From the sequence record NC_022968.1: a stretch of DNA of 64,000 nucleotides. The stretch is one strand, 5' to 3'. Positions 4,145 to 18,415 of the stretch are shown here, piece after piece. Numbering within the stretch: the first letter of the stretch is position 1; the number at the start of each line of letters is the position of its first letter. Source of the stretch: Escherichia phage 4MG. The translations under genes and the position numbers were made by a program. The notes beneath the pieces were generated by a model. The model made no database searches. It was not told where the DNA came from and saw nothing but the letters and a program-made list of their open reading frames with translations.

Positions 4145-5827
4145 TTACAGTTGAGCGGCTGCTCGTTCACGAATCGTTGTCAGGTCTTCATCGACAATCA
4201 GTTTGCCGTTGTAGAACACACGACGCAGTTCGTTATCGTCAGACTGTACATCTTCAAGCTGACAATTGTCAATCAGTTCTAGCTGACCAAACATATTGCG
4301 AACAACCTTCAGGAAACCTTTTGCAGACTTCTTACCGAGGTCAGTCTTAGGTTCTTTGACAACCATGATCTGCTGACCATCAATAACCGCACCAGTTGCC
4401 TTCACAGCCATACCCAGTGAATCGCGGGTTGTGTACTGGGTAGTAAAGGAACCAACACCGTACACGATATTGCTGGATGCAAAGCCTTTATCTTTCAGAC
4501 GTTCAAAGATGTCTTTTGCACGAGCAACAGTGATAGAGTCACCGTAGATCAGGCCAACATGACTATCCAGAACTTTGTAACCCTTGGAGTTAACTTCACC
4601 ACCAAAGATTTCCCACAGACACTGGATTGCACCTTTGACTTCATGGTCTTGCAGATCGGAAGGCTCAAGATCAAGGTAATCCGTATCTTCATCGAATTCG
4701 ATGTTGTAATACTTACCTTTGACTGATACAACTTCACCTTTCTCGCTTTCCCATGCTGCGTCTTTGGCTTCAGACAGCGTTTCGAAATCACCAATATAAC
4801 GATACCCCGCAATGATATGTTCCGGAATGCCTGAATCAGGACGGAACACAACACGACCGTCACGAGCCATGATTTCTTCTTTCAGAATCAGTGCTGCACG
4901 GGTAATAATCGCCCAGAAGTCATAGCTGTCTGCTACGTAGGAAACAAAACCTTTCGGGAAAATTTCCGTGATGTAGCGTTTCAGGAATTCAACTTCAGCC
5001 AGGAAACGCAGTTCATCCAGGGACAAATCAGGATTTTCAGTTTTCAGGCGACCGACGATAAAGCCAATGTTAGTTGTTGCAACACTGTGTTCTGATGCAG
5101 GAATAGAACCAGCAACGAACTTACCTTTCATGTTGTAATAACGGTTCGCATACAGAATCGCAGGAATGGTATCTGTACCCATTGAGTTGATCAGTTGACC
5201 AAACTCACTCTGTGCCGCGTCGTGAGTACCAGATTCACCGCGATAAGCGAAGCAGTGGTTCTGGAACGGAACATGCAGGTTGTTATCACAAGTTTCGGCA
5301 GCGTATGCTTCAGACAGTTTGCGATACTGCCAGAAGGTAGTTGCAGTTGTGATGGTTTTCCATGTCTCTGCGGAGATCACGCTTTCCAGGAAGTTCGGCA
5401 ACCAGTAAAAATCAGGGTGCGTGTTCTGAATGGTGAACAGCGGAACCTGTACCGGGGACAGAGTGCCTTCAGGAATCGAACGGATTTCCAGTGGCAGGTA
5501 ACCAAGGTCATGCAGCTTTTCAAAGCCCCAGGTTTCAACCATGTCCGGGCCGATGCTCAGTTCACAAATTTCTTTGTACTGTGCGATAGCCGCTTTCTTT
5601 TTCATTTTGAAAAAGTTTTCGTTGAACAGGTCGATCAGGAACCATTTGATGAAACCTTGCAAGCCAGCCATCATCACACGCTGATCGTTATCAGCGAAGT
5701 GAATGAAGTGCTTTGCATTGCGTGGTGTCATGTTGTCCTGAACAATTTCAGAACGTCGGTCATACATGGAGATGTGTGAAGGTTTGTAAAAGTCAGCGAA
5801 TACGAGTGGGCTTTCTTTATGCAGCAT
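4145..5827 (-). CDS. nicotinamide phosphoribosyltransferase (NAMPT) family protein; candidate nicotinamide ADP-ribose transferase of an NAD+ reconstitution pathway
   Basis: 560-aa track ORF with AAGGAGA SD; NAMPT motif set FADFYKPSH, PLEIRSIPEGT, FTIQNTHPDFYWLPNF, AYRGESG, ASEHSVATT, VADSYDFW, FRPDSGIP. Confidence 0.88.
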   Translation of the reverse strand: MLHKESPLVFADFYKPSHISMYDRRSEIVQDNMTPRNAKHFIHFADNDQRVMMAGLQGFIKWFLIDLFNENFFKMKKKAAIAQYKEICELSIGPDMVETWGFEKLHDLGYLPLEIRSIPEGTLSPVQVPLFTIQNTHPDFYWLPNFLESVISAETWKTITTATTFWQYRKLSEAYAAETCDNNLHVPFQNHCFAYRGESGTHDAAQSEFGQLINSMGTDTIPAILYANRYYNMKGKFVAGSIPASEHSVATTNIGFIVGRLKTENPDLSLDELRFLAEVEFLKRYITEIFPKGFVSYVADSYDFWAIITRAALILKEEIMARDGRVVFRPDSGIPEHIIAGYRYIGDFETLSEAKDAAWESEKGEVVSVKGKYYNIEFDEDTDYLDLEPSDLQDHEVKGAIQCLWEIFGGEVNSKGYKVLDSHVGLIYGDSITVARAKDIFERLKDKGFASSNIVYGVGSFTTQYTTRDSLGMAVKATGAVIDGQQIMVVKEPKTDLGKKSAKGFLKVVRNMFGQLELIDNCQLEDVQSDDNELRRVFYNGKLIVDEDLTTIRERAAAQL

Positions 5828-5880
5828 GTTTTGTTTCTCCTTTGTGTGTTTTGATGGGGTGATTCTACACCCCGTTTCGT

Positions 5881-6414
5881 TTAGATGTCAAGTGAAAAAT
5901 CTAAAGATTTAGATTCTTCTGTTACAACCGTTGTTTCTTTAACCAGACGACAGCCTTTCACCTTGATTTCTTTGGCTGGTGACCACTTAGTCGCACGGAT
6001 ATAGAATGTGTTTGCACGAATAACCATGAACCGGGCTACATCTTCAGGTGGTTCCTCGTTAATAAAAATCGCAACACTTTCGTATGCAGGCCACTTCATA
6101 GGGTTTTCATCGGTAACATCGGAATGTATACCATTACCGTTGTTAGTGCGACCCGGTGTAGGCCAGATAGTACAAGGTCGATAGCAGGCGTGGTCATCAG
6201 GAACCTGAATAACGTGATTTTCTAACCACGAGCAAATTTTTTCCAGGTCAAAATCATAATGGTCTTCTTTCAGGTCTTCAATATCTGTACGATATTCAGC
6301 CCCAACACCACACTCACCGATTTGCCCGGTAATATGAGCGCACATGTCACGCTCAAAGTTTCCTGCGTATGAGTCAGTATCGACAACAAAAATAAAACGA
6401 GTTGATTCAGTCAT
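5881..6414 (-). CDS. hypothetical protein (177 aa) embedded between the NAMPT-like and Prs-like genes
   Basis: Track ORF; stop/start abuts 6414-7214; no motif recognised (no Nudix box, no P-loop). Confidence 0.5.
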   Translation of the reverse strand: MTESTRFIFVVDTDSYAGNFERDMCAHITGQIGECGVGAEYRTDIEDLKEDHYDFDLEKICSWLENHVIQVPDDHACYRPCTIWPTPGRTNNGNGIHSDVTDENPMKWPAYESVAIFINEEPPEDVARFMVIRANTFYIRATKWSPAKEIKVKGCRLVKETTVVTEESKSLDFSLDI

Positions 6415-7214
6415 TAAAAATTCTCCGTCCAGTCATGGTATGCGTAGATTTCATCAACCCCGCCATCGAGGATGATTTGTTTCCCGAATGAGAAAATGCC
6501 GTGCGTAACGTAAAGGATAACACGTTTTGCACCATTCTCTTTCAGGGCTTTAGCCAGGGCGATGAAGGTACGACCACCATCACAGATATCATCGACGACA
6601 ACGCATTCGCGTCCTTCAACATCACCAAAGATTGCTGTCCCCGTAATTTCGTTTGTTTTCAGGTCACGAACCTTACCAGCTTCAACCAGAGGGAGTCGCA
6701 TACGGTCGGCAACCTTCTGTGCCTTCTTGCGAGCGCCTGCGTCTGGTGCAACAATGGTCACATCTTTCCCGGCAAGTTGATCATGGAATTCTGCAACAAG
6801 AATCTCTTGTCCACGAATCTGAACATTGTCCAGCAGTGCAGCAGAAACATCACTGTGTGGGTCATCAACAATCACTTTGTCGAAGCCAAGCGAGTTGACG
6901 AGGTTTGCAAAAACCTTGATAGATAGTGACTGTCCAGGTTGCATCACGCGATCCTGACGGGCATACGGGATGTATGGCAGGTGCAGGGTAAACTCAGCAT
7001 GGTTATGCAGCCCTTCAAGACGGGAACATGCATCCACCAACATAGCTAATGCCATGACATCGGTGGAGTTTTTGATTTTTGCAGTGATATCGACGAAACC
7101 AATACCGCCTTTTGGGGCATGTTTCAGATCAATCTCAACCTGTTCCTCACCACCCTTGAAGGTGAAGTGGTTAACAGGCACTTCCAGTTTGTTCAAGCGT
7201 AATTCAATACTCAT
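6414..7214 (-). CDS. ribose-phosphate pyrophosphokinase (Prs) family protein; candidate ADP-ribose pyrophosphokinase
   Basis: 266-aa track ORF, AGGAGA SD; Prs motifs PYIPYARQDR and VVDDICDGGRTF, GAKRV; shorter than cellular Prs. Confidence 0.88.
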   Translation of the reverse strand: MSIELRLNKLEVPVNHFTFKGGEEQVEIDLKHAPKGGIGFVDITAKIKNSTDVMALAMLVDACSRLEGLHNHAEFTLHLPYIPYARQDRVMQPGQSLSIKVFANLVNSLGFDKVIVDDPHSDVSAALLDNVQIRGQEILVAEFHDQLAGKDVTIVAPDAGARKKAQKVADRMRLPLVEAGKVRDLKTNEITGTAIFGDVEGRECVVVDDICDGGRTFIALAKALKENGAKRVILYVTHGIFSFGKQIILDGGVDEIYAYHDWTENF

Positions 7215-7215
7215 T

Positions 7216-7533
7216 TTATTTCTCCTCTATCCAATCGTGAATTTCGTAAACCGTTTTGTTGTGGCCCATATTGGTGCGTGTTGTATCCTTTGTCAACCAT
7301 TTTATTTTCTCAAGGTTACCCACACACCGGGCAACAGTCGCCCTCGATAATCCTGTGGCATCAGCGATACTATCAAGTGACTCATGGTAAGTTTTCCGGA
7401 GAGACTTGAAGTAATGATACTGATGACGCATGTAGAGGTACACAATCTTGTCGTTGGACGAGGCGCAGGTCACCGACAGCAACTTCAGTTCGAAGTTACC
7501 GTAGATGTGCTTACCTGACGCGATGTACCCCAT
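7216..7533 (-). CDS. helix-turn-helix DNA-binding protein, putative transcriptional regulator (105 aa)
   Basis: Track ORF, GGAGGAGAG SD; HTH-like segment SIADATGLSRATVARCVGNL; first gene of leftward block next to divergent control region. Confidence 0.5.
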   Translation of the reverse strand: MGYIASGKHIYGNFELKLLSVTCASSNDKIVYLYMRHQYHYFKSLRKTYHESLDSIADATGLSRATVARCVGNLEKIKWLTKDTTRTNMGHNKTVYEIHDWIEEK

Positions 7534-8803: not shown

Positions 8804-9039
8804 GCAGACTTTCAAAGCTTCACAGACGAAAGAACATGCTGAAAGAAAAGCAGAAAAATATCACCGCAACTTTCCAAGTGTGCCGTGAAGCTATGAAGGC
8901 AAATCTGATAACGCCTTCACAGAGGCAGATTATCCGTGATATACTCCGGCCTGTGCTGCACGACCTGGAGGGCGAGGTTCGTGATGTTTTATGCCACATT
9001 CAAGAAGAACTTGAAAAATTAAATCAGGAGAATACATGA
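8800..9039 (+). CDS. hypothetical protein (79 aa)
   Basis: Track ORF; coupled start. Confidence 0.45.
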   Translation: MSRLSKLHRRKNMLKEKQKNITATFQVCREAMKANLITPSQRQIIRDILRPVLHDLEGEVRDVLCHIQEELEKLNQENT

Positions 9040-9629
9040 TCGACCACGTTACATCAGACACGCATTGGTGGCACACCAATATTCTGGGTTTTCCCTCGTG
9101 TGATAAATTCCGGAAAAACCTGTACGGTCCAAAGGAAGTCCGTGAAAGTCTGTATGCCATGAATGCTGGCATGATTGAAATCTGGAATAAGCACGTCAAA
9201 CCAGATGATGTCGTAGCACACCTCGGTGATTTCGTGATTGCTTACGGACGCTACATGGAGCCTCGCGTTCGTGACATCTTGGAAAAGATCAACGGAAAGA
9301 TCATTCTGGTTGGTGGAAACCATGACAACCGAGATACGAAACGTATCTTCCGTGAGTTTGGTCACGAAGTTGTTGATTATAAAGAGATTAACTTCAGCAC
9401 TGGAAAAGAGAAGGTGCATGTGTGTATGTCTCACTATCCGTTTGCATCGTGGAATAAAGCTCACCACGGGTCAGTTATGCTGCACGGTCATAGCCACGGC
9501 TCCTATACAGCCCCTGGTGGACGTATTCTGGATGTGGGTTGGGATGTACATGGTCGTCCTCTGACGATGCGTGAAGCCGTCCTGATGTGCCTTGAAAAAC
9601 CAATTTACACTGCTGATCACGGAGAATAA
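9036..9629 (+). CDS. calcineurin-like metallophosphoesterase (candidate RNA/DNA-end phosphatase)
   Basis: Track ORF 197 aa; motifs HLGDFV, GGNHDNRD, HGHSHG typical of metallophosphatases. Confidence 0.7.
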   Translation: MIDHVTSDTHWWHTNILGFPSCDKFRKNLYGPKEVRESLYAMNAGMIEIWNKHVKPDDVVAHLGDFVIAYGRYMEPRVRDILEKINGKIILVGGNHDNRDTKRIFREFGHEVVDYKEINFSTGKEKVHVCMSHYPFASWNKAHHGSVMLHGHSHGSYTAPGGRILDVGWDVHGRPLTMREAVLMCLEKPIYTADHGE

Positions 9630-9630
9630 T

Positions 9631-9987
9631 ATGCACAACAAAGTACGTAATTTCTTACCTAAGAAAACATCTAAGTCTTTTTATGCTACGATACACATTG
9701 CTGGGGATCTGGAATCAGCAAGACCATTGCTCCGTCAATGGACTATGCGTGGTGCTTGTGTACAACTAGTCGGGTGTGATTACATCTACACTGGCGGCTC
9801 TGAACGGGGTATGACAGTTCGCATCATGCAGTATCCTCGTTTTGAACGACCGGAGCACGAGATCCTTGAAATGGCGGTTGAACTTGCTAACTTTTTAGCT
9901 CAGGAACTCTGCCAGATCAGTTTCAGCATTGAAACTCCTTACAATACAACGTATTACCAAGCAGAAGGTTACGAAAAGCGATCATGA
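9631..9987 (+). CDS. hypothetical protein (118 aa)
   Basis: ATG after GGAG SD; frame of track ORF. Confidence 0.4.
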   Translation: MHNKVRNFLPKKTSKSFYATIHIAGDLESARPLLRQWTMRGACVQLVGCDYIYTGGSERGMTVRIMQYPRFERPEHEILEMAVELANFLAQELCQISFSIETPYNTTYYQAEGYEKRS

Positions 9988-10187
9988 AAATTCACAACAT
10001 AACCAAGGACAGGATTCATTTCATAATGGATTCAGGGGCTTACGGTTCAATTTCAAAGGTGGATGCCATGAAGTTTCTGTATGCTTCAAATATTCCTCAG
10101 GCAAAGCTTGACTCCCGTTCAGGAGAGTGTATTATTGACTCTATTACGAATACACAAGAACTGTGGGAGATATATCATGAAATTTAA
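9984..10187 (+). CDS. hypothetical protein (67 aa)
   Basis: Track ORF; coupled start. Confidence 0.4.
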   Translation: MKIHNITKDRIHFIMDSGAYGSISKVDAMKFLYASNIPQAKLDSRSGECIIDSITNTQELWEIYHEI

Positions 10188-11097
10188 CGTAGATGATCTG
10201 GTTGCTAAAAAGCTGGTAACCAAAAAGACTTACACCGAAGGCCCGTTCGCGGGTCTGTCTGTACTGAAATATAAGAACAATGTGTTCTGGGATAACCTGT
10301 GGCACACAGATGCGCGTCTGCTTGAGTGCCGTGGCATGGTTGTTGATGCAGAGGACAACGTTGTTATCTGGCCTTTCACGAAGATTTTCAATCGCTTCGA
10401 GAACAACACTGATGTCCCACAGGACAAGTTGGTGTGCGTACCTCGTAAAGTCAATGGCTTTATGGCAGCAATGAGTGTTTACAATGGTGAAGTAATTGTG
10501 TCTACCACAGGAACACTTGATTCTGAGTTTGCACAAATGGCAAAAGATAAGATCACTGGTTCCATGCCTGAAGGGATGCTTGACTATTTCGTGAAGAATG
10601 CTGGACCTTGCACACTTATCTTTGAAATATGTGATGAGAGTGATCCCCACATTGTCGCAGAAGAAGCGGGTGCTTATCTGATTGGTTGCCGGGTCCACTT
10701 AAGTGGTGGTATGCTTCCAGAGTGGGACCTTGATAGAGTTGCAAATCGTTATGGTTGGAAACGTGCTGACTGGGACAACATGATCTTCAGCGATGTTGTT
10801 AAGGCTTCCAAGTCAGTTAATCATGAAGGTTTTGTTGTTCGTGATGTTGACACCAATGAGCTACTGCTGAAAATTAAGTCTCCACATTACCTGGCGAAGA
10901 AGTTCCTGATGCGTGGTAGCCAGAACAAGTGGGACCTGATTTGGGACAACCCGAAAGAAGCCAAAAAACGTATCGACGAAGAGTTCTACGAACTTCTTGA
11001 CTGGCTGCGCTGGGCTTACGAAAAAGATGAGTGGGCGGCTAAGGACTCTCAGTATCGTCGTATGATTATTGAAAAATATTTTGAGGATCGCAAATGA
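10177..11097 (+). CDS. RNA ligase-like nucleotidyltransferase (Rnl2-like)
   Basis: 306 aa; covalent nucleotidyltransferase motifs KVNG (motif I), NHEGFVVRD (motif IV), LKIKSPHY (motif V). Confidence 0.55.
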   Translation: MKFNVDDLVAKKLVTKKTYTEGPFAGLSVLKYKNNVFWDNLWHTDARLLECRGMVVDAEDNVVIWPFTKIFNRFENNTDVPQDKLVCVPRKVNGFMAAMSVYNGEVIVSTTGTLDSEFAQMAKDKITGSMPEGMLDYFVKNAGPCTLIFEICDESDPHIVAEEAGAYLIGCRVHLSGGMLPEWDLDRVANRYGWKRADWDNMIFSDVVKASKSVNHEGFVVRDVDTNELLLKIKSPHYLAKKFLMRGSQNKWDLIWDNPKEAKKRIDEEFYELLDWLRWAYEKDEWAAKDSQYRRMIIEKYFEDRK

Positions 11098-11330
11098 CAC
11101 TCATGTCAATCAAGAACAAACTTGACCGGGCTGTTTCCATAATTACCAGACTTATCATTGGGTTATCTGTGTTTATCTTCTTATTTGCACTGATAATCTT
11201 TGTGAATTGGGTTATCGAAACTCTGGGTGGTAAAGTAATATTCGGTGGAATTCTGCTCATCATTGCGGTGATTGGCTGTTATGGTGTTGGATGTTCCATC
11301 TACCCACACAAAGAAAAGGGTGAAAAATGA
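11094..11330 (+). CDS. small membrane protein (78 aa)
   Basis: Track ORF; two hydrophobic helices. Confidence 0.45.
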   Translation: MTLMSIKNKLDRAVSIITRLIIGLSVFIFLFALIIFVNWVIETLGGKVIFGGILLIIAVIGCYGVGCSIYPHKEKGEK

Positions 11331-11671
11331 TCATCTGGCTTGATGACTTGAGAGACCCAAAAGACTACGGGTATCCTGATGCCTTGTGGTTCAAGACCTC
11401 TCAGAAGTTTATGGATTTTCTTGATAATCGGTCAAAGTTCTATCGTTATGTCACAGAGTGGCATTTTGATAATGACCTAGGTGAAGATTCAGAAAAGGAG
11501 GGCTATGACTGCCTACTGGCCTTGGAAGAGAAGCTTGTGTATGGGAAACTTCCTGTGCATGATGCTAAACTCTATGTCCATACGTCTAACCCTTCTGCGG
11601 CACAAAAGTTCATGCTTGCAAAAGAGAGCTTCTTGAAGTATCGTATCACGATCTTAAGAAACAATTACTGA
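11327..11671 (+). CDS. hypothetical protein (114 aa)
   Basis: Track ORF; coupled start. Confidence 0.45.
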   Translation: MIIWLDDLRDPKDYGYPDALWFKTSQKFMDFLDNRSKFYRYVTEWHFDNDLGEDSEKEGYDCLLALEEKLVYGKLPVHDAKLYVHTSNPSAAQKFMLAKESFLKYRITILRNNY

Positions 11672-11680
11672 GGAGAAGAG

Positions 11681-12088
11681 ATGGAAAAGACTCTGATCAT
11701 CCTGCGTGGTGTGTCTGGTGCTGGTAAGTCTACAGTAGCAGATATGCTGGCAGAGGATTTGTGGCCTGTCTATGAAGCAGATAAATTCCACTACACAGAA
11801 GATGGCGTGTACGACTGGAAACCTGAAAACATGCAGGCTGCACACGCATGGTGTCAGTCAGAGGTCAAAGATATGATGGGGTGGAATATCAGCAGGATCA
11901 TCGTATCTAACACCTCTACCAGTGAAAAAGAACTGAAGCCGTATCTTGATCTCGCAGCGGAGAACGGGTATCGTGTCATCAGCTTGGTGGTAGAAAACCG
12001 TCATGGCAATGACTCCATTCACAGCGTTCCGCAGGAAACCCGCGATGCTCAAGAGCGTCGTCTGCGTAACTCATTGAAATTACAGTAA
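11681..12088 (+). CDS. P-loop kinase, polynucleotide 5'-kinase-like
   Basis: 135 aa; Walker A GVSGAGKST at N-terminus; sits between RNA ligase-like and Sir2-like genes. Confidence 0.55.
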   Translation: MEKTLIILRGVSGAGKSTVADMLAEDLWPVYEADKFHYTEDGVYDWKPENMQAAHAWCQSEVKDMMGWNISRIIVSNTSTSEKELKPYLDLAAENGYRVISLVVENRHGNDSIHSVPQETRDAQERRLRNSLKLQ

Positions 12089-12098
12089 GGGGAAACAA

Positions 12099-12875
12099 TT
12101 GAGGCGTTTAATTGTTATTAGTGGTGCAGGCTTCTCTGCTGAAAGCGGTGTTCGTACATTCCGTACTGATACAGACTCCGGAAAGGCTTTGTGGGATGAG
12201 TACGACCTTGAAGAGGTCTGTAATATCCATGCTTTCCGTGGTAATTTCTATCACAAAACGCACATGTTTTATAACAAGCGTCGTGTAGAACTGCAAACTG
12301 TGCATCCGAATGCTGCACATATGCGTGTTGCTGAGTGGTATAAAAACTACCCAAAACAGGTTGTTAATCTGACGACAAACGTAGATGACCTGCTGGAACG
12401 TGCTGGTGTTCCTAAGGAAGATACTCTGTATATCCACGGATATCTGAAAGAACTTCGGTATAAACTTCACGAAGATTCTGAAGAGCAGTTAGTTGACATT
12501 GGTTACAATGAAGTAGATCCTGATGAATTTCACTGGTGCAAACCAAATGTGGTCTTCTTTGGTGAGGCTGCTCCAGCATATAACGACCTATACTCAACCC
12601 TAGATAGCCTGACATCTGAAGACATGGTGATTGTTGTTGGATGCTCAAACACAGTTATCAACTTCAACTGGGAGCTTTTCCCAGCATCAAGGATGGGTAC
12701 TAAGATTGTTGTGGTTAACCCTAATGTTCGCTACGATGAACAGTTGATGTACGAAGACGCTGGTGTTGTTGTATACCGAACTGGTGCTGTAGATGCGTTC
12801 AGCAACCCTGGTCTCATCAAAATGGTTGAGGATCACCTTGAAGGTAAAACCTCATTGCAGAAGAAGGAGAAATAA
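12099..12875 (+). CDS. Sir2-family (sirtuin-like) NAD+-dependent protein
   Basis: 258 aa, TTG start after AAGGGG SD; GAGFSAESGVRTFR NAD-binding signature, YIHGYL, VVGCSNTV, VVVNPN; no Cys4 zinc module. Confidence 0.7.
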   Translation: MRRLIVISGAGFSAESGVRTFRTDTDSGKALWDEYDLEEVCNIHAFRGNFYHKTHMFYNKRRVELQTVHPNAAHMRVAEWYKNYPKQVVNLTTNVDDLLERAGVPKEDTLYIHGYLKELRYKLHEDSEEQLVDIGYNEVDPDEFHWCKPNVVFFGEAAPAYNDLYSTLDSLTSEDMVIVVGCSNTVINFNWELFPASRMGTKIVVVNPNVRYDEQLMYEDAGVVVYRTGAVDAFSNPGLIKMVEDHLEGKTSLQKKEK

Positions 12876-14179
12876 TGTCAATTAGTTTAGACACACCAAC
12901 ACTATACGCCATTAACAAGGACGGATCGTATCAAGTTTGGAATGTAACCACAGAAGGTGATGAGGTTGTCGTTTCTTTCGGTAAGGAAAATGGAAAGATT
13001 CAACAAAAGCGCACCAAGTGTGAAATGAAAAACATTGGTCGTTCCAATGAAACCACCGCTGAGTTCCAGGCCGTCCTGGAGGCCCGGTCTAAGTGGGAGA
13101 AACAGGTCCGTTTAGGTTATCGTGAGACCAAAGAGGAGTTACAGACGGAAGAGAACTTCTCTCCTATGCTGGCACACGATGCGATCAAACGGTCAAAGTC
13201 AATCGTCTATCCTGCGTATATTCAGCCAAAGCTCGATGGTGTTCGTGCTCTTGTGACGCTTGACAAGGACGGCATCCCGGTGTTTAATAGCCGTGGCAAC
13301 AAAACATACCCAGTACAGGGCGCTTTATTGCAGCAAGTTAAAGAACTTGCAGAGCACACAGGGTTTGACAAGTTCGATGGTGAACTGTATATTCATGGTC
13401 TAAGCCTTCAGAAGATTGTTGCTTTGGCTAAGAAGTGGCGCACCCCTGAACAGATTGAAGCTGAGATCGAGAAAGACTATCAGGCTGATATCAAGCGCTG
13501 TAATAAGGCGGTTGCCGATGGTGAGCATCTCTGGAAAGACTTTGATGGTAATGTGTGGGCTGTTTCCACGTATAAACCAGTAAAAGACGTTGACCGCTTC
13601 AGTGGTTATTCCAGTCTTGACCTAGAGTATCACATCTTTGACATTCCTGTGAATGCACAAAGCCCTTGGTACTCTTATGAGCATGATAAGACCAGACATC
13701 AAGATCTGTTGGTGGTTGCCGATGCTGTTGAATGTGAACTTAACGTACCTATGGTGAAAGTTATCCACGGGATCGTGGTATCTTCTGAAAGGGAAGTTAA
13801 ATGGTCCATCGGTAAATACATGGAGCAGGGATTTGAAGGTTCAATCATCCGAAACTTCAAAGGTGTCTACGAATTTGGTCAACGATCCTCTGATCTCCAA
13901 AAATGGAAACAGTTCCAGGATGGTGAGGCAAAAGTTCTTGATTCTGTAGAGGATAAGAACGGTGAGGGTGTCCTGCTCTGTGAAGAAAGAGATGGTACTC
14001 GATTCAACTGCAAAATGAAAGGCACTCACGCAGAGCGTTCTCAGGCGAAGATGCTATTGTTGGTTGGCGATTTCATCAACTTTACATTCCAGTCGCGTAC
14101 TGATGATGGTGTACCTCAGTTCCCGGTGGGGCAGAGTGTACGTGAACTTGATACATTAACATGGGAGCCAGTATACTAA
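12875..14179 (+). CDS. ATP-dependent DNA ligase
   Basis: 434 aa; motif I KLDGVR, motif IV-like FEGSIIR; size typical of phage ATP ligases. Confidence 0.8.
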   Translation: MSISLDTPTLYAINKDGSYQVWNVTTEGDEVVVSFGKENGKIQQKRTKCEMKNIGRSNETTAEFQAVLEARSKWEKQVRLGYRETKEELQTEENFSPMLAHDAIKRSKSIVYPAYIQPKLDGVRALVTLDKDGIPVFNSRGNKTYPVQGALLQQVKELAEHTGFDKFDGELYIHGLSLQKIVALAKKWRTPEQIEAEIEKDYQADIKRCNKAVADGEHLWKDFDGNVWAVSTYKPVKDVDRFSGYSSLDLEYHIFDIPVNAQSPWYSYEHDKTRHQDLLVVADAVECELNVPMVKVIHGIVVSSEREVKWSIGKYMEQGFEGSIIRNFKGVYEFGQRSSDLQKWKQFQDGEAKVLDSVEDKNGEGVLLCEERDGTRFNCKMKGTHAERSQAKMLLLVGDFINFTFQSRTDDGVPQFPVGQSVRELDTLTWEPVY

Positions 14180-16592: not shown

Positions 16593-16756
16593 TGTTACTA
16601 AACCTGAAAGCGTCTACCTGGGAAAAGTTGCAGCACTTAGCGCGAGTTAAGAATAAGTCTGCTGCTGCCCTTGTAGCAAAAATTGTTGACGAACATGTTG
16701 ACGAGAAAGTAAAAACTACCTATAAAATTGAAGAGGAGAACCAAACCAATGCTTAA
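16592..16756 (+). CDS. ribbon-helix-helix-like small DNA-binding protein (54 aa)
   Basis: Not in track; TAATG coupling; N-terminal pattern LNLKASTWEKLQHLARVKNKSAAALVAKIV resembles Arc/CopG RHH fold. Confidence 0.4.
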   Translation: MLLNLKASTWEKLQHLARVKNKSAAALVAKIVDEHVDEKVKTTYKIEEENQTNA

Positions 16757-17639
16757 GAATATCAAACGTGTGATTTTTGCTGGCCTGATCGCTCTGGGTG
16801 CCGTTGGCCTGACTGGTTGTGAACGTGCAACTGTCCCGGCAGGTTATGTGGGTGTGAAGGTTGACCTGTATGGCGACGAAAAGGGTGTTCAGCAGCAGGA
16901 AGTGGGTGTTGGTAAATACTGGCTGACCTGGAACGAAGAAATCTATCAGTTCCCTACATTCAACCAGTTAAACAACTACGACCAACCGTTTAACTTCCAG
17001 ACCAAGGATTCTATGACGGTCTCTGCGAAGGTTGGTGTTGAGTATTACGTTGACCGCTCCAAGGTCACCAAGATCTTCCAGACCTACCGTAAAGGTGTTC
17101 AGGAAATCACTGATGTCAACATTCGTCAGAACATCTCTGATGCACTGATCAAAGAAGCGGGTACGATGGATATCGGTACGCTGGCTGGCGATGGTAAATC
17201 TCAGCTTCTGGATCGTGTGACGAAGACCCTGAAAGCGAAGCTTGACCCGATTGGTATCGTGATCGTGAAACTGTCTTACACTGATGATCTGCGTTATCCA
17301 CCACAGGTAACCGCATCCATCAACGCGAAGATCGAAGCGACTCAGAAAGCGCTGCTGCGTGAAAACGAAATCCAGCAGACCAAAGCTGAAGCTCAGAAAC
17401 AGATCGAAGCCGCTCGCGGTGAAGCTGAATCTAAGCGACTGCAAGCTCAGGGTGAGGCAGATGCTAAAGTAGCACTGGCAAAAGGTGAAGCAGAATCCAT
17501 CCAACTGCGTGGTGATTCTCTCCGCAAAAACCCAGAAATTATGCAACTGGAAGCGATCAACAAGTGGAACGGTGTGACCCCGGTCTATATGACCAGCGGT
17601 TCTCAGACCCCATTCGTTACCCTGCCAGCAGGTAAATAA
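16749..17639 (+). CDS. SPFH (band-7/prohibitin-like) domain lipoprotein
   Basis: 296 aa; lipobox LTGC after hydrophobic signal; SPFH-like core followed by long Ala/Glu/Gln coiled coil. Confidence 0.7.
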   Translation: MLKNIKRVIFAGLIALGAVGLTGCERATVPAGYVGVKVDLYGDEKGVQQQEVGVGKYWLTWNEEIYQFPTFNQLNNYDQPFNFQTKDSMTVSAKVGVEYYVDRSKVTKIFQTYRKGVQEITDVNIRQNISDALIKEAGTMDIGTLAGDGKSQLLDRVTKTLKAKLDPIGIVIVKLSYTDDLRYPPQVTASINAKIEATQKALLRENEIQQTKAEAQKQIEAARGEAESKRLQAQGEADAKVALAKGEAESIQLRGDSLRKNPEIMQLEAINKWNGVTPVYMTSGSQTPFVTLPAGK

Positions 17640-17908: not shown

Positions 17909-18415
17909 ATGAGAGTAACTGATCAGCATGTTTTCTTCTTCACTTATCGTGATATGTTCAGCAACCACTTTCGACAGATAATTCCTATTCGTTGTGGTGG
18001 CTATGAGTTCTTCACGGTGGAGCACTTTATGATGTTCCAAAAAGCAATGCTCTTTGATGACAAAGAGATTGCTGCACGTATTGCCACAGTTGATAATCCA
18101 AACGAGGCAAAAGCGCTGGGTCGTAAAGTCAGGGACTTTGACAACAGTGTTTGGGAAGAAAACAGAATGGACATTGTAACAAACGGTCTTGTTCTGAAAA
18201 TGAAGGCTAACCGCTCTATTCTGGAGTCTGCACTGACTCACAGAGATGCTGGGCGGCGATTTGTAGAGGCATCCCCGTATGATGCAATCTGGGGTGTAAA
18301 ACTGAATGAATATGATCCACGCATTGATGATCCTGCTAACTGGCAAGGTCTTAATCTTCTCGGTGAGTGCTGGGAAAGAGCAATTGATGTTGTGATCGCA
18401 GCTTCGTGGAGGTGA
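17909..18415 (+). CDS. NADAR-domain (YbiA-like) protein
   Basis: 168 aa; motifs MFSNHF, TVEHFMMFQKA, DAIWGV, GLNLLGECWERA matching the YbiA/NADAR pattern. Confidence 0.75.
   Translation: MRVTDQHVFFFTYRDMFSNHFRQIIPIRCGGYEFFTVEHFMMFQKAMLFDDKEIAARIATVDNPNEAKALGRKVRDFDNSVWEENRMDIVTNGLVLKMKANRSILESALTHRDAGRRFVEASPYDAIWGVKLNEYDPRIDDPANWQGLNLLGECWERAIDVVIAASWR

Follow-up and report, generated by a model that had tools for sequence, protein, structure and literature searches.

What does a 177-residue open reading frame (ORF) do between two genes of NAD+ metabolism, and does it belong with them? The question is raised by a 64,000-nucleotide stretch of Escherichia phage 4MG (NC_022968.1), hereafter the window, in which an ATG-initiated ORF, here called ORF177, occupies positions 5881..6414 of the minus strand. 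An earlier note, made from the letters and their ORFs, had placed it between a NAMPT-like and a Prs-like gene, all on one strand, and the ORF list bears this out. We conclude that ORF177 is a genuine, dispensable accessory gene of an NAD+ reconstitution pathway 1 (NARP1) operon in one Vequintavirinae lineage. As to function, for which the computational evidence is thin, we tentatively favor (probability about 0.35) an optional protein that binds or enzymatically converts a phosphorylated nucleotide derived from NAD+ or ADP-ribose (ADPR) and that feeds or shields NARP1; both the action on such a ligand and the cooperation with NARP1 are what we infer from the evidence below. DNA similarity groups the phage with GAP31, EC152 and PVP-SE1, as a Vequintavirinae/Seunavirus relative of theirs, and the unit that contains ORF177 reads, in the order of transcription:

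7216..7533, minus strand: winged helix-turn-helix (wHTH) gene, first of the unit, 105 aa; its stop is 1 nt upstream of the Adps start
6414..7214, minus strand: Adps, the Prs-like ADP-ribose pyrophosphokinase of NARP1, 266 aa; Pfam, PHROG 619 and PDB Prs matches
5881..6414, minus strand: ORF177 (X in the gene orders below), 177 aa, 20.2 kDa, pI 4.7; PHROG 23621 member
4145..5827, minus strand: Namat, the NAMPT-like nicotinamide ADP-ribose transferase of NARP1, 560 aa; PDB 9W5X/9W5W and Pfam NAPRTase matches

The Prs-like protein matched Pfam Pribosyltran_N, Pribosyltran and Pribosyl_synth, and the NAMPT-like protein matched PDB chains 9W5X/9W5W, the SpbetaL1 Namat structures (PMC12774641), at E=2.8e-124, compared with 1e-46 to 1e-53 for canonical NAMPTs. 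The Namat-type match and the Prs-like domains together identify the flanking genes as the Adps and Namat of NARP1 (Osterman et al.), in which ADPR and ATP yield ADP-ribose pyrophosphate (ADPR-PP), and ADPR-PP and nicotinamide yield NAD+. With a Namat-type homologue present, and Adps on the same strand and parted from it by ORF177 alone, the module is, as far as sequence can tell, NARP1.

Several lines of evidence mark ORF177 as a gene in its own right. It matched PHROG 23621, a group whose function is unannotated, over residues 1-177 of 177 at E=1.8e-110, and it shares 90% identity with GAP31 gp181, found at the same operon position. The ratio of nonsynonymous to synonymous substitutions (dN/dS) was 0.06-0.10 for ORF177 (against the GAP31 and EspYZU15 orthologues), 0.04-0.10 for Adps (0.04-0.08 for the same two orthologue pairs) and 0.11-0.13 for Namat, so that purifying selection on ORF177 matches in strength that on the flanking genes. 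A profile search of 1.84 billion representatives recovered 1,780 clusters (50% identity) at E up to 1e-3, 806 of them at 1e-30 or below, and a second family search recovered 1,689 clusters at 90% identity and E up to 1e-5. An AlphaFold2 model built on a 68-sequence alignment reached a mean predicted local distance difference test score (pLDDT) of 95.1 and a predicted template modelling score (pTM) of 0.87. Taken together, the PHROG match, the family of about 1,780 clusters, the dN/dS values and the pLDDT place the ORF far beyond chance. The model comprises β1 (residues 2-13) and α1 (21-29), followed by a pair of inserted helices, a series of short strands between 68 and 99, one more strand (113-118), α2 (124-135) and a long last strand (152-164), from which ORF177 is predicted to be a soluble, acidic, single-domain α+β protein with a ferredoxin-like (β-α-β-β-α-β) core.

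Three signals of the minus strand are needed to describe the manner in which the gene is joined to its neighbors:

6423..6426, minus strand: Shine-Dalgarno GGAG of ORF177, inside the last Adps codons (ACG GAG AAT TTT TAA TG), 8 nt before the ATG
5862..5891, minus strand: σ70-like promoter of Namat, TTGACA-18 nt-TAGAAT; 11 of 12 positions, the best match in the 4-kb region
5856..5873, minus strand: hairpin GGGGTG[TAGAAT]CACCCC with the -10 hexamer as its loop; ΔG -11.9 kcal/mol, z = -2.2

On the coding strand, the junction of Adps and ORF177 reads GAC TGG ACG GAG AAT TTT TAA TG ACT, in which TAATG is a 1-nt overlap. Position 6414 is therefore common to the two genes, as the earlier note had said, although with the opposite polarity: the start of ORF177 overlaps the stop of the Prs-like gene and not the converse. 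In all seven of the insert-bearing phages compared, Adps ends in ACG GAG AAY TTT TAA TG, giving GGAG, whereas all five insert-less phages use the synonymous AC(A/C) GAA AAC TT(C/T) TAA and none of the five has GGAG. At the other end, ORF177 overlaps the -35 box with its final codons and stop (CTTGACATCTAA), the stop falling in or just past TTGACA, and in insert-less phages Adps terminates either directly in front of that TTGACA or 6 nt ahead of it. The hairpin stem is kept by compensatory changes (GGGTGC/GCACCC in PVP-SE1, GGGCG/CGCCC in VIK251 and Ro1), as it is in the distant metagenomic phages L081 and L163, which suggests that the conserved promoter-hairpin element (5856..5891) has a part in regulation or processing and is more than a plain promoter. 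With TAATG and GGAG within Adps, and a separate promoter for Namat, ORF177 is predicted to be expressed with Adps, and Namat additionally from its own promoter. Judged by the junction, then, ORF177 is translationally coupled to Adps.

This arrangement is not confined to the close relatives of 4MG. The order Adps-X-Namat and the 1-nt overlap recur in the metagenomic phages L081/L008 and L163, where identity to the 4MG proteins is 74% for Adps, 59% for X and 50-56% for Namat. The phages with the insert were not monophyletic in neighbor-joining trees of Adps and of Namat: some made up the deep outgroup, EspYZU15 was sister of the insert-less PVP-SE1 clade, and a WIN/GAP31 group stood beside an insert-less Mydovirus pair. 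The simplest reading is that Adps-X-Namat is an old arrangement that has undergone at least two losses, or recombination. Cargo appears to vary at both ends of the operon, since the wHTH slot, too, is swapped: the wHTH protein of 4MG has weak Pfam matches to IclR-type HTH, DUF6945 and PF24409 (wHTH-PRTase_assc), and an unrelated protein of ~186 aa replaces it in PVP-SE1, SSE121 and Ro1.

Members of the wider family are nearly all single-domain, unannotated proteins of 150-250 aa, among them gp332 of Bacillus phage G, and those in IMG/VR lie mostly on contigs of 100-490 kb. A search of 185,579 species genomes returned 12 loci, all on contigs of metagenome-assembled genomes (MAGs) of the candidate phyla radiation (CPR), DPANN, Dependentiae and others, and one of these is the same 362,763-bp contig as a viral locus in IMG/VR. 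These 12 nominally cellular loci are probably phage contigs binned into MAGs, and with so few of them, one already listed as viral, the family is essentially restricted to phages. Literature searches by accession number and PHROG id found no paper on GAP31 gp181, phage G gp332 or PHROG 23621, and the gene is unmentioned in the NARP1 papers. About 26 positions are at least 90% conserved among 120-214 diverse homologues:

D12 T13 Y16 G18 N19 F20 E21 R22 A26 T29 G30 G33 C35 G38 D73 R79 P80 T86 N91 G93 G95 S113 V114 P122 R133 R156

All of these are kept by 4MG ORF177, and G18, R22 and R133 are invariant across 120 diverse sequences. The conserved motifs are hhhDT-xx-Y-x-GNFER, TG-xx-GEC-x-VG, DDHGC-x-RP, PTPG-xx-N-x-G-x-G and PAY-x-SV, and the conserved polar set consists of D12, E21 and D73, of R22, R79, R133 and R156, of N19 and N91, and of Y16, F20 and C35, with glycine-rich loops. 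With its three carboxylates and four arginines, its two asparagines, its aromatic residues and its glycine loops, the set is of the kind to be expected of an enzyme acting on an anionic, phosphate-bearing ligand, or of a specific binder of one; it would be atypical for a fast-evolving inhibitor of protein-protein type. With regard to a metal site or cysteine cluster, C35 is 93% and C77 79% conserved, and there is no complete conserved set of cysteines and histidines.

Searches for a known relative returned little. ORF177 and 68 homologues had no match in Pfam (for ORF177, none at E up to 1, so no Nudix box, PF00293), NCBIfam and PADLOC scans of ORF177 gave nothing, and the family profile matched no PDB sequence at E up to 10; the empty Pfam, NCBIfam and PADLOC scans agree with the earlier observation that no P-loop, Nudix or other motif could be recognized. 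Foldseek against the PDB gave as its best match a PII-like protein at E=0.07, with weak but recurrent structural neighbors of the RNA recognition motif (RRM)-like/RAMP kind (Cas6, Cmr1, Csm/Csf subunits, ribosomal S6 and POP5), and BFVD held one unnamed relative. Remote homology and structure prediction, which the note had proposed as a check, thus delivered a high-confidence fold and a full-length PHROG assignment without a known domain or a close structural match. The predicted fold is confident and has no close structural relative, and ORF177 is without a domain or fold of the Macro, RyR or Nudix type.

Three specific identities were considered and rejected. An acylphosphatase, suggested by the likeness of the GNFER loop to the GxVQGVxFR phosphate cradle, was ruled out by hhalign, and a HAD-like DxDxT motif ('VVDTDSY') was ruled out because D14 is only ~53% conserved and the predicted fold is not Rossmannoid. 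The aRES inhibitor aRad1 was also ruled out; its founding gene (IMG id ..._30886_31098) spans 213 nt, or ~70 aa.

In the reading we favor, the TAATG overlap and the embedded Shine-Dalgarno sequence would tie translation of ORF177 to that of Adps, and the conserved polar site of the protein would bind, and probably transform, a phosphorylated nucleotide-type metabolite arising from NAD+ or ADP-ribose. The family at large would act as a stand-alone phage counter-measure, as do phage Macro, NADAR and RyR-domain proteins, and in this Vequintavirinae lineage it would have been wired into NARP1, with its product (ADPR or a related precursor) feeding Adps; alternatively, it may remove or sequester a molecule that NARP1 cannot use. 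In favor of a NARP1-linked role we counted the position of ORF177 in the slot between Adps and Namat that Adpp fills in other operons, and the precedent of RyDEP beside NARP1, both of which are compared with ORF177 below.

Some distant family members also keep company that would suit such a role. A 233-kb jumbo-phage contig (IMG/VR UViG_3300033984_000473, L053:2900-14391) carries a dense NAD/ADP-ribose island with a family gene, in the order Nudix-containing NadM-like gene, Glu_synthase-like gene, NAMPT, a 201-aa ORF, X, NADAR, metallophosphoesterase and Macro, with SIR2 and Prs further on. On a 360-kb contig (UViG_3300015606_001334, L015:7983-9565) X is followed directly, with 8723 as the boundary that both share, by an ATP-NAD kinase (PF01513 and PF20143). 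Elsewhere, a cytidylyltransferase-like (NMNAT-type) gene lies ~200 nt upstream of X (L059), X is preceded at 1.4-3 kb by NAMPT and by a NadM-like Nudix gene (L026), and Adps and Namat lie 1.8-4.3 kb downstream (L049), while in an unverified record of Salmonella phage 21 NAMPT fragments occur within 2 kb of a family gene. These contexts of NAD/ADPR genes in unrelated large phages are scattered but suggestive. NadV has been reported in 22-33% of medium and jumbo phages (Iyer et al., PMC9503650), a frequency that calls for caution against over-reading linkage, whether present or absent. A function of this class is compatible with linkage that is less than universal.

Other evidence weighs against this reading. 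Only 10 of the 80 phage records that match the 3.6-kb module encode ORF177 (at 80-90% identity), and in PVP-SE1, SSE121, KE23, VIK251 and Ro1 the gap between Adps and Namat is 61-67 nt with nothing between; the gene being missing from such close relatives, NARP1 evidently works without it. A neighbor census searched against Pfam the 140 proteins that directly flank family members at 70 loci dereplicated at 60% identity; 5 of the 70 loci had NAD-related neighbors (Adps/Namat twice, NADAR, NAD kinase and the NMNAT-type gene). Control genes ~6 kb away included SIR2, NrtR, NAD-dependent ligase, cREC and RtcB at 2-3 of 59 loci, and no NAD-gene enrichment beside family members relative to these controls was significant. 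There is, in short, no statistically convincing family-wide association with NAD genes, and more than 90% of lineages occur in other contexts. Homologues no more than 49% identical sit elsewhere, among small early genes or near Thg1, DHFR or ThyA. The gene overlap itself is typical of packed phage genomes and is also seen with non-NAD neighbors (Sacchrp_dh, PTH2), as in four T4-like loci, two of them carrying Gp23, where a saccharopine-dehydrogenase-like gene (Sacchrp_dh), X and PTH2 form an overlapping or near-abutting run. Domain fusions among ~1,700 relatives amounted to one with DUF6575 and one 373-aa protein with an unannotated N-terminus, neither of them informative.

These observations also settle how far the proposals of the earlier note can be carried. 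It had suggested that tight embedding made ORF177 a third component of the module (an accessory subunit, a regulator, or an activity producing ADP-ribose or nicotinamide) and that orthologous operons be examined for the same insert. The insert is there in GAP31-type phages and in L081 and L163, and is lacking from the five relatives just named. ORF177 is indeed embedded, coupled to Adps, conserved in layout down to ~50% Namat identity and placed like Adpp; it is also optional, and absence from otherwise syntenic modules means that it is not an obligatory third component or subunit. An accessory subunit as an obligatory part must therefore be given up, given that Adps and Namat adjoin directly in five relatives, and ORF177 holds as an optional, lineage-specific add-on of NARP1, a 'third component' in the weak sense only. 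Of the activities proposed, an optional accessory activity on an ADP-ribose-type metabolite is plausible.

Among the other explanations, the main rival, only slightly less probable than the reading we favor, is that of an unrelated 'moron': a widespread early gene without any bearing on NAD+, serving host takeover, other nucleotide metabolism or inhibition of a conserved host factor, would have settled in, or been inherited at, a permissive slot that follows the Adps stop and precedes the Namat promoter, and would borrow the transcription and translation of Adps. The census favors it, as do the repeated loss or patchiness of the gene within the Vequintavirinae, the precise insertion edges (the TAA of Adps and, at the far end, the TTGACA promoter) and the extreme heterogeneity of family neighbors, which include sigma factors (3), PTH2 (2) and GIY-YIG (2) as well as ThyA, SpoU and DFP. 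G+C content at third codon positions (GC3) is 0.35 in ORF177 against 0.46 in Adps and 0.47 in Namat, which hints at a different origin and is compatible with acquisition from another genomic background despite the old association with the operon. Against it stand the persistence of arrangement and coupling over the deep divergence of the operon (Namat 50%) and the synonymous Adps codons adapted to its expression; in jumbo phages that are unrelated, family genes are again found directly beside NAD kinase, an NMNAT-type gene or NADAR/NAMPT, and Adpp and RyDEP are two independent precedents of genes embedded in or adjoining NARP1 that act as functional extensions. The coupling, kept in all insert-bearing phages, could also point to a stoichiometric partner of Adps, that is, an accessory subunit, chaperone or regulator that binds the Adps hexamer and modulates its activity or solubility; some Adps proteins are poorly soluble alone, and X appears to co-diverge with Adps and Namat. 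We regard this as very unlikely, because Adps orthologues 83-89% identical serve operons without X, most family members have no Adps within 8-10 kb, and a polar site so strongly conserved across phages of very different hosts favors a universal ligand over a lineage-specific partner. More ambitious than the reading we favor, and doubtful at present, is the proposal that ORF177 founds a structurally novel family of enzymes or sponges for an NAD+-derived product or immune signal outside the reach of Macro/Adpp and RyDEP, which would make its operon a third kind of extended NARP1 pathway.

Elsewhere in the window, on the plus strand, lie further genes, several of them related to NAD or to RNA repair:

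9036..9629, plus strand: metallophosphoesterase (MPP)
10081..11097, plus strand: ligase-like 338-aa protein with a KVNG motif; no Pfam match
11327..11671, plus strand: cREC (PF20274)
11681..12088, plus strand: AAA_33 kinase
12099..12875, plus strand: SIR2
12875..14179, plus strand: ATP-dependent DNA ligase, directly after SIR2
16728..17639, plus strand: SPFH/Band-7 protein
17909..18415, plus strand: stand-alone NADAR-domain protein (PF08719, E=6e-34)

The genes from 9036 to 12875 form a putative sirtuin-centered RNA-repair cluster, 2.6-6.5 kb from ORF177 on the opposite strand, of the kind described for rV5/Mydo-type phages by Iyer et al. (PMC9503650).

This cluster bears on one more alternative, namely that ORF177 is an enzyme linked to RNA or tRNA repair, or an RNA binder, with an RRM/ferredoxin-like (RAMP-like) fold and four invariant arginines, which acts on RNA ends or tRNA and belongs with RNA-repair islands and not with NARP1. 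The weak RRM-like and RAMP structural neighbors and the proximity of the cluster would fit such a role. So would the neighbors of family members, among which genes of RNA repair recur: RNA ligases, a polynucleotide kinase (PNK)-like kinase, Thg1-like genes and PTH2 (3-18 nt away in the T4-like clade), together with the SpoU methylase, a tRNA-binding OB domain and, as the commonest neighbor cluster of all (13 of 60 loci), a metallophosphoesterase like that of 4MG at 9036..9629. However, the control genes include genes of RNA repair as well (RtcB, RNase PH and cREC), and ORF177 lies in the NARP1 unit, on the strand opposite the RNA-repair cluster, so that we think a role in RNA repair unlikely.

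The depletion of NAD+ and signaling by its derivatives are used against phages by an estimated 15-20% or more of bacteria, and the two accessory activities described in 2026 each exposed new host chemistry, ADPR-1''P made by aRES in the case of Adpp and the cleavage of 2'/3' cyclic ADP-ribose (2'/3'cADPR) in that of RyDEP. ORF177 is a third, unrelated accessory NARP1 gene, with strong selection, a confidently predicted but unmatched fold and a very large unannotated family. Cooperation with NARP1, if it exists, would be a pointer to a further non-canonical NAD+ product or defense chemistry and would give a function to ~1,800 orphan phage clusters. Were it the founder of a novel family, a major and so far invisible arm of phage NAD+/ADPR counter-defense would come into view, in large phages of many host phyla. 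If there is no link to NARP1, the family is still a widespread and well-defined phage orphan family, and embedding in an operon would have to be taken as weak evidence of shared function in phages.

The closest known parallel is NARP1-AP, the experimentally proven Adps-Adpp-Namat operon of Vibrio phage Gary (Osterman et al., bioRxiv 10.64898/2026.01.28.702374). Adpp is a Macro-domain phosphatase of ADP-ribose-1''-phosphate (ADPR-1''P) that lies between Adps and Namat in ~15% of NARP1 operons and lets NARP1 overcome aRES (bioRxiv 10.64898/2026.01.28.702374). The 4MG operon has the same order of Adps, small accessory gene and Namat, its accessory gene is likewise optional, and by analogy the logic may be the same, a non-canonical NAD+ product being turned into ADPR for Adps. 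The protein itself is different, since its sequence has no Macro domain by Pfam (PF14519, PF01661 and PF20016) and its model no Macro fold; GAP31-type operons are not listed in the supplementary tables of the aRES paper, including that of NARP1-associated Macro genes. RyDEP is a glycosidase with a RyR domain (PF02026) found beside NARP1 in mycobacteriophage DyoEdafos, where it opens 2'/3'cADPR to linear ADPR (PMC13232231). Its family is mostly stand-alone in other phages, and the linear ADPR that it produces feeds Adps and Namat (PMC13232231). ORF177 resembles it as an accessory gene found with NARP1 whose family lives mostly elsewhere, and differs in structure: RyDEP is an R12-type RyR repeat with an H75/D117 dyad, while ORF177 is modeled as a ferredoxin-like α+β protein, has no PF02026 match and drew no RyR or RyDEP structure among its fold-search matches.

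With PHROG 23621, GAP31 gp181 and phage G gp332 the relationship is one of full-length membership, in a family of ~1,780 clusters that is far larger than the PHROG suggests. At the level of the predicted fold, ORF177 shares the generic β-α-β-β-α-β core with ACT/MgtC-C domains, PII-like SbtB, RAMP/Cas6 proteins and ribosomal S6. ACT-type domains bind their ligands at the β1-α1 junction, and it is at the β1-α1 junction of the model that the most conserved motif of ORF177 is found.

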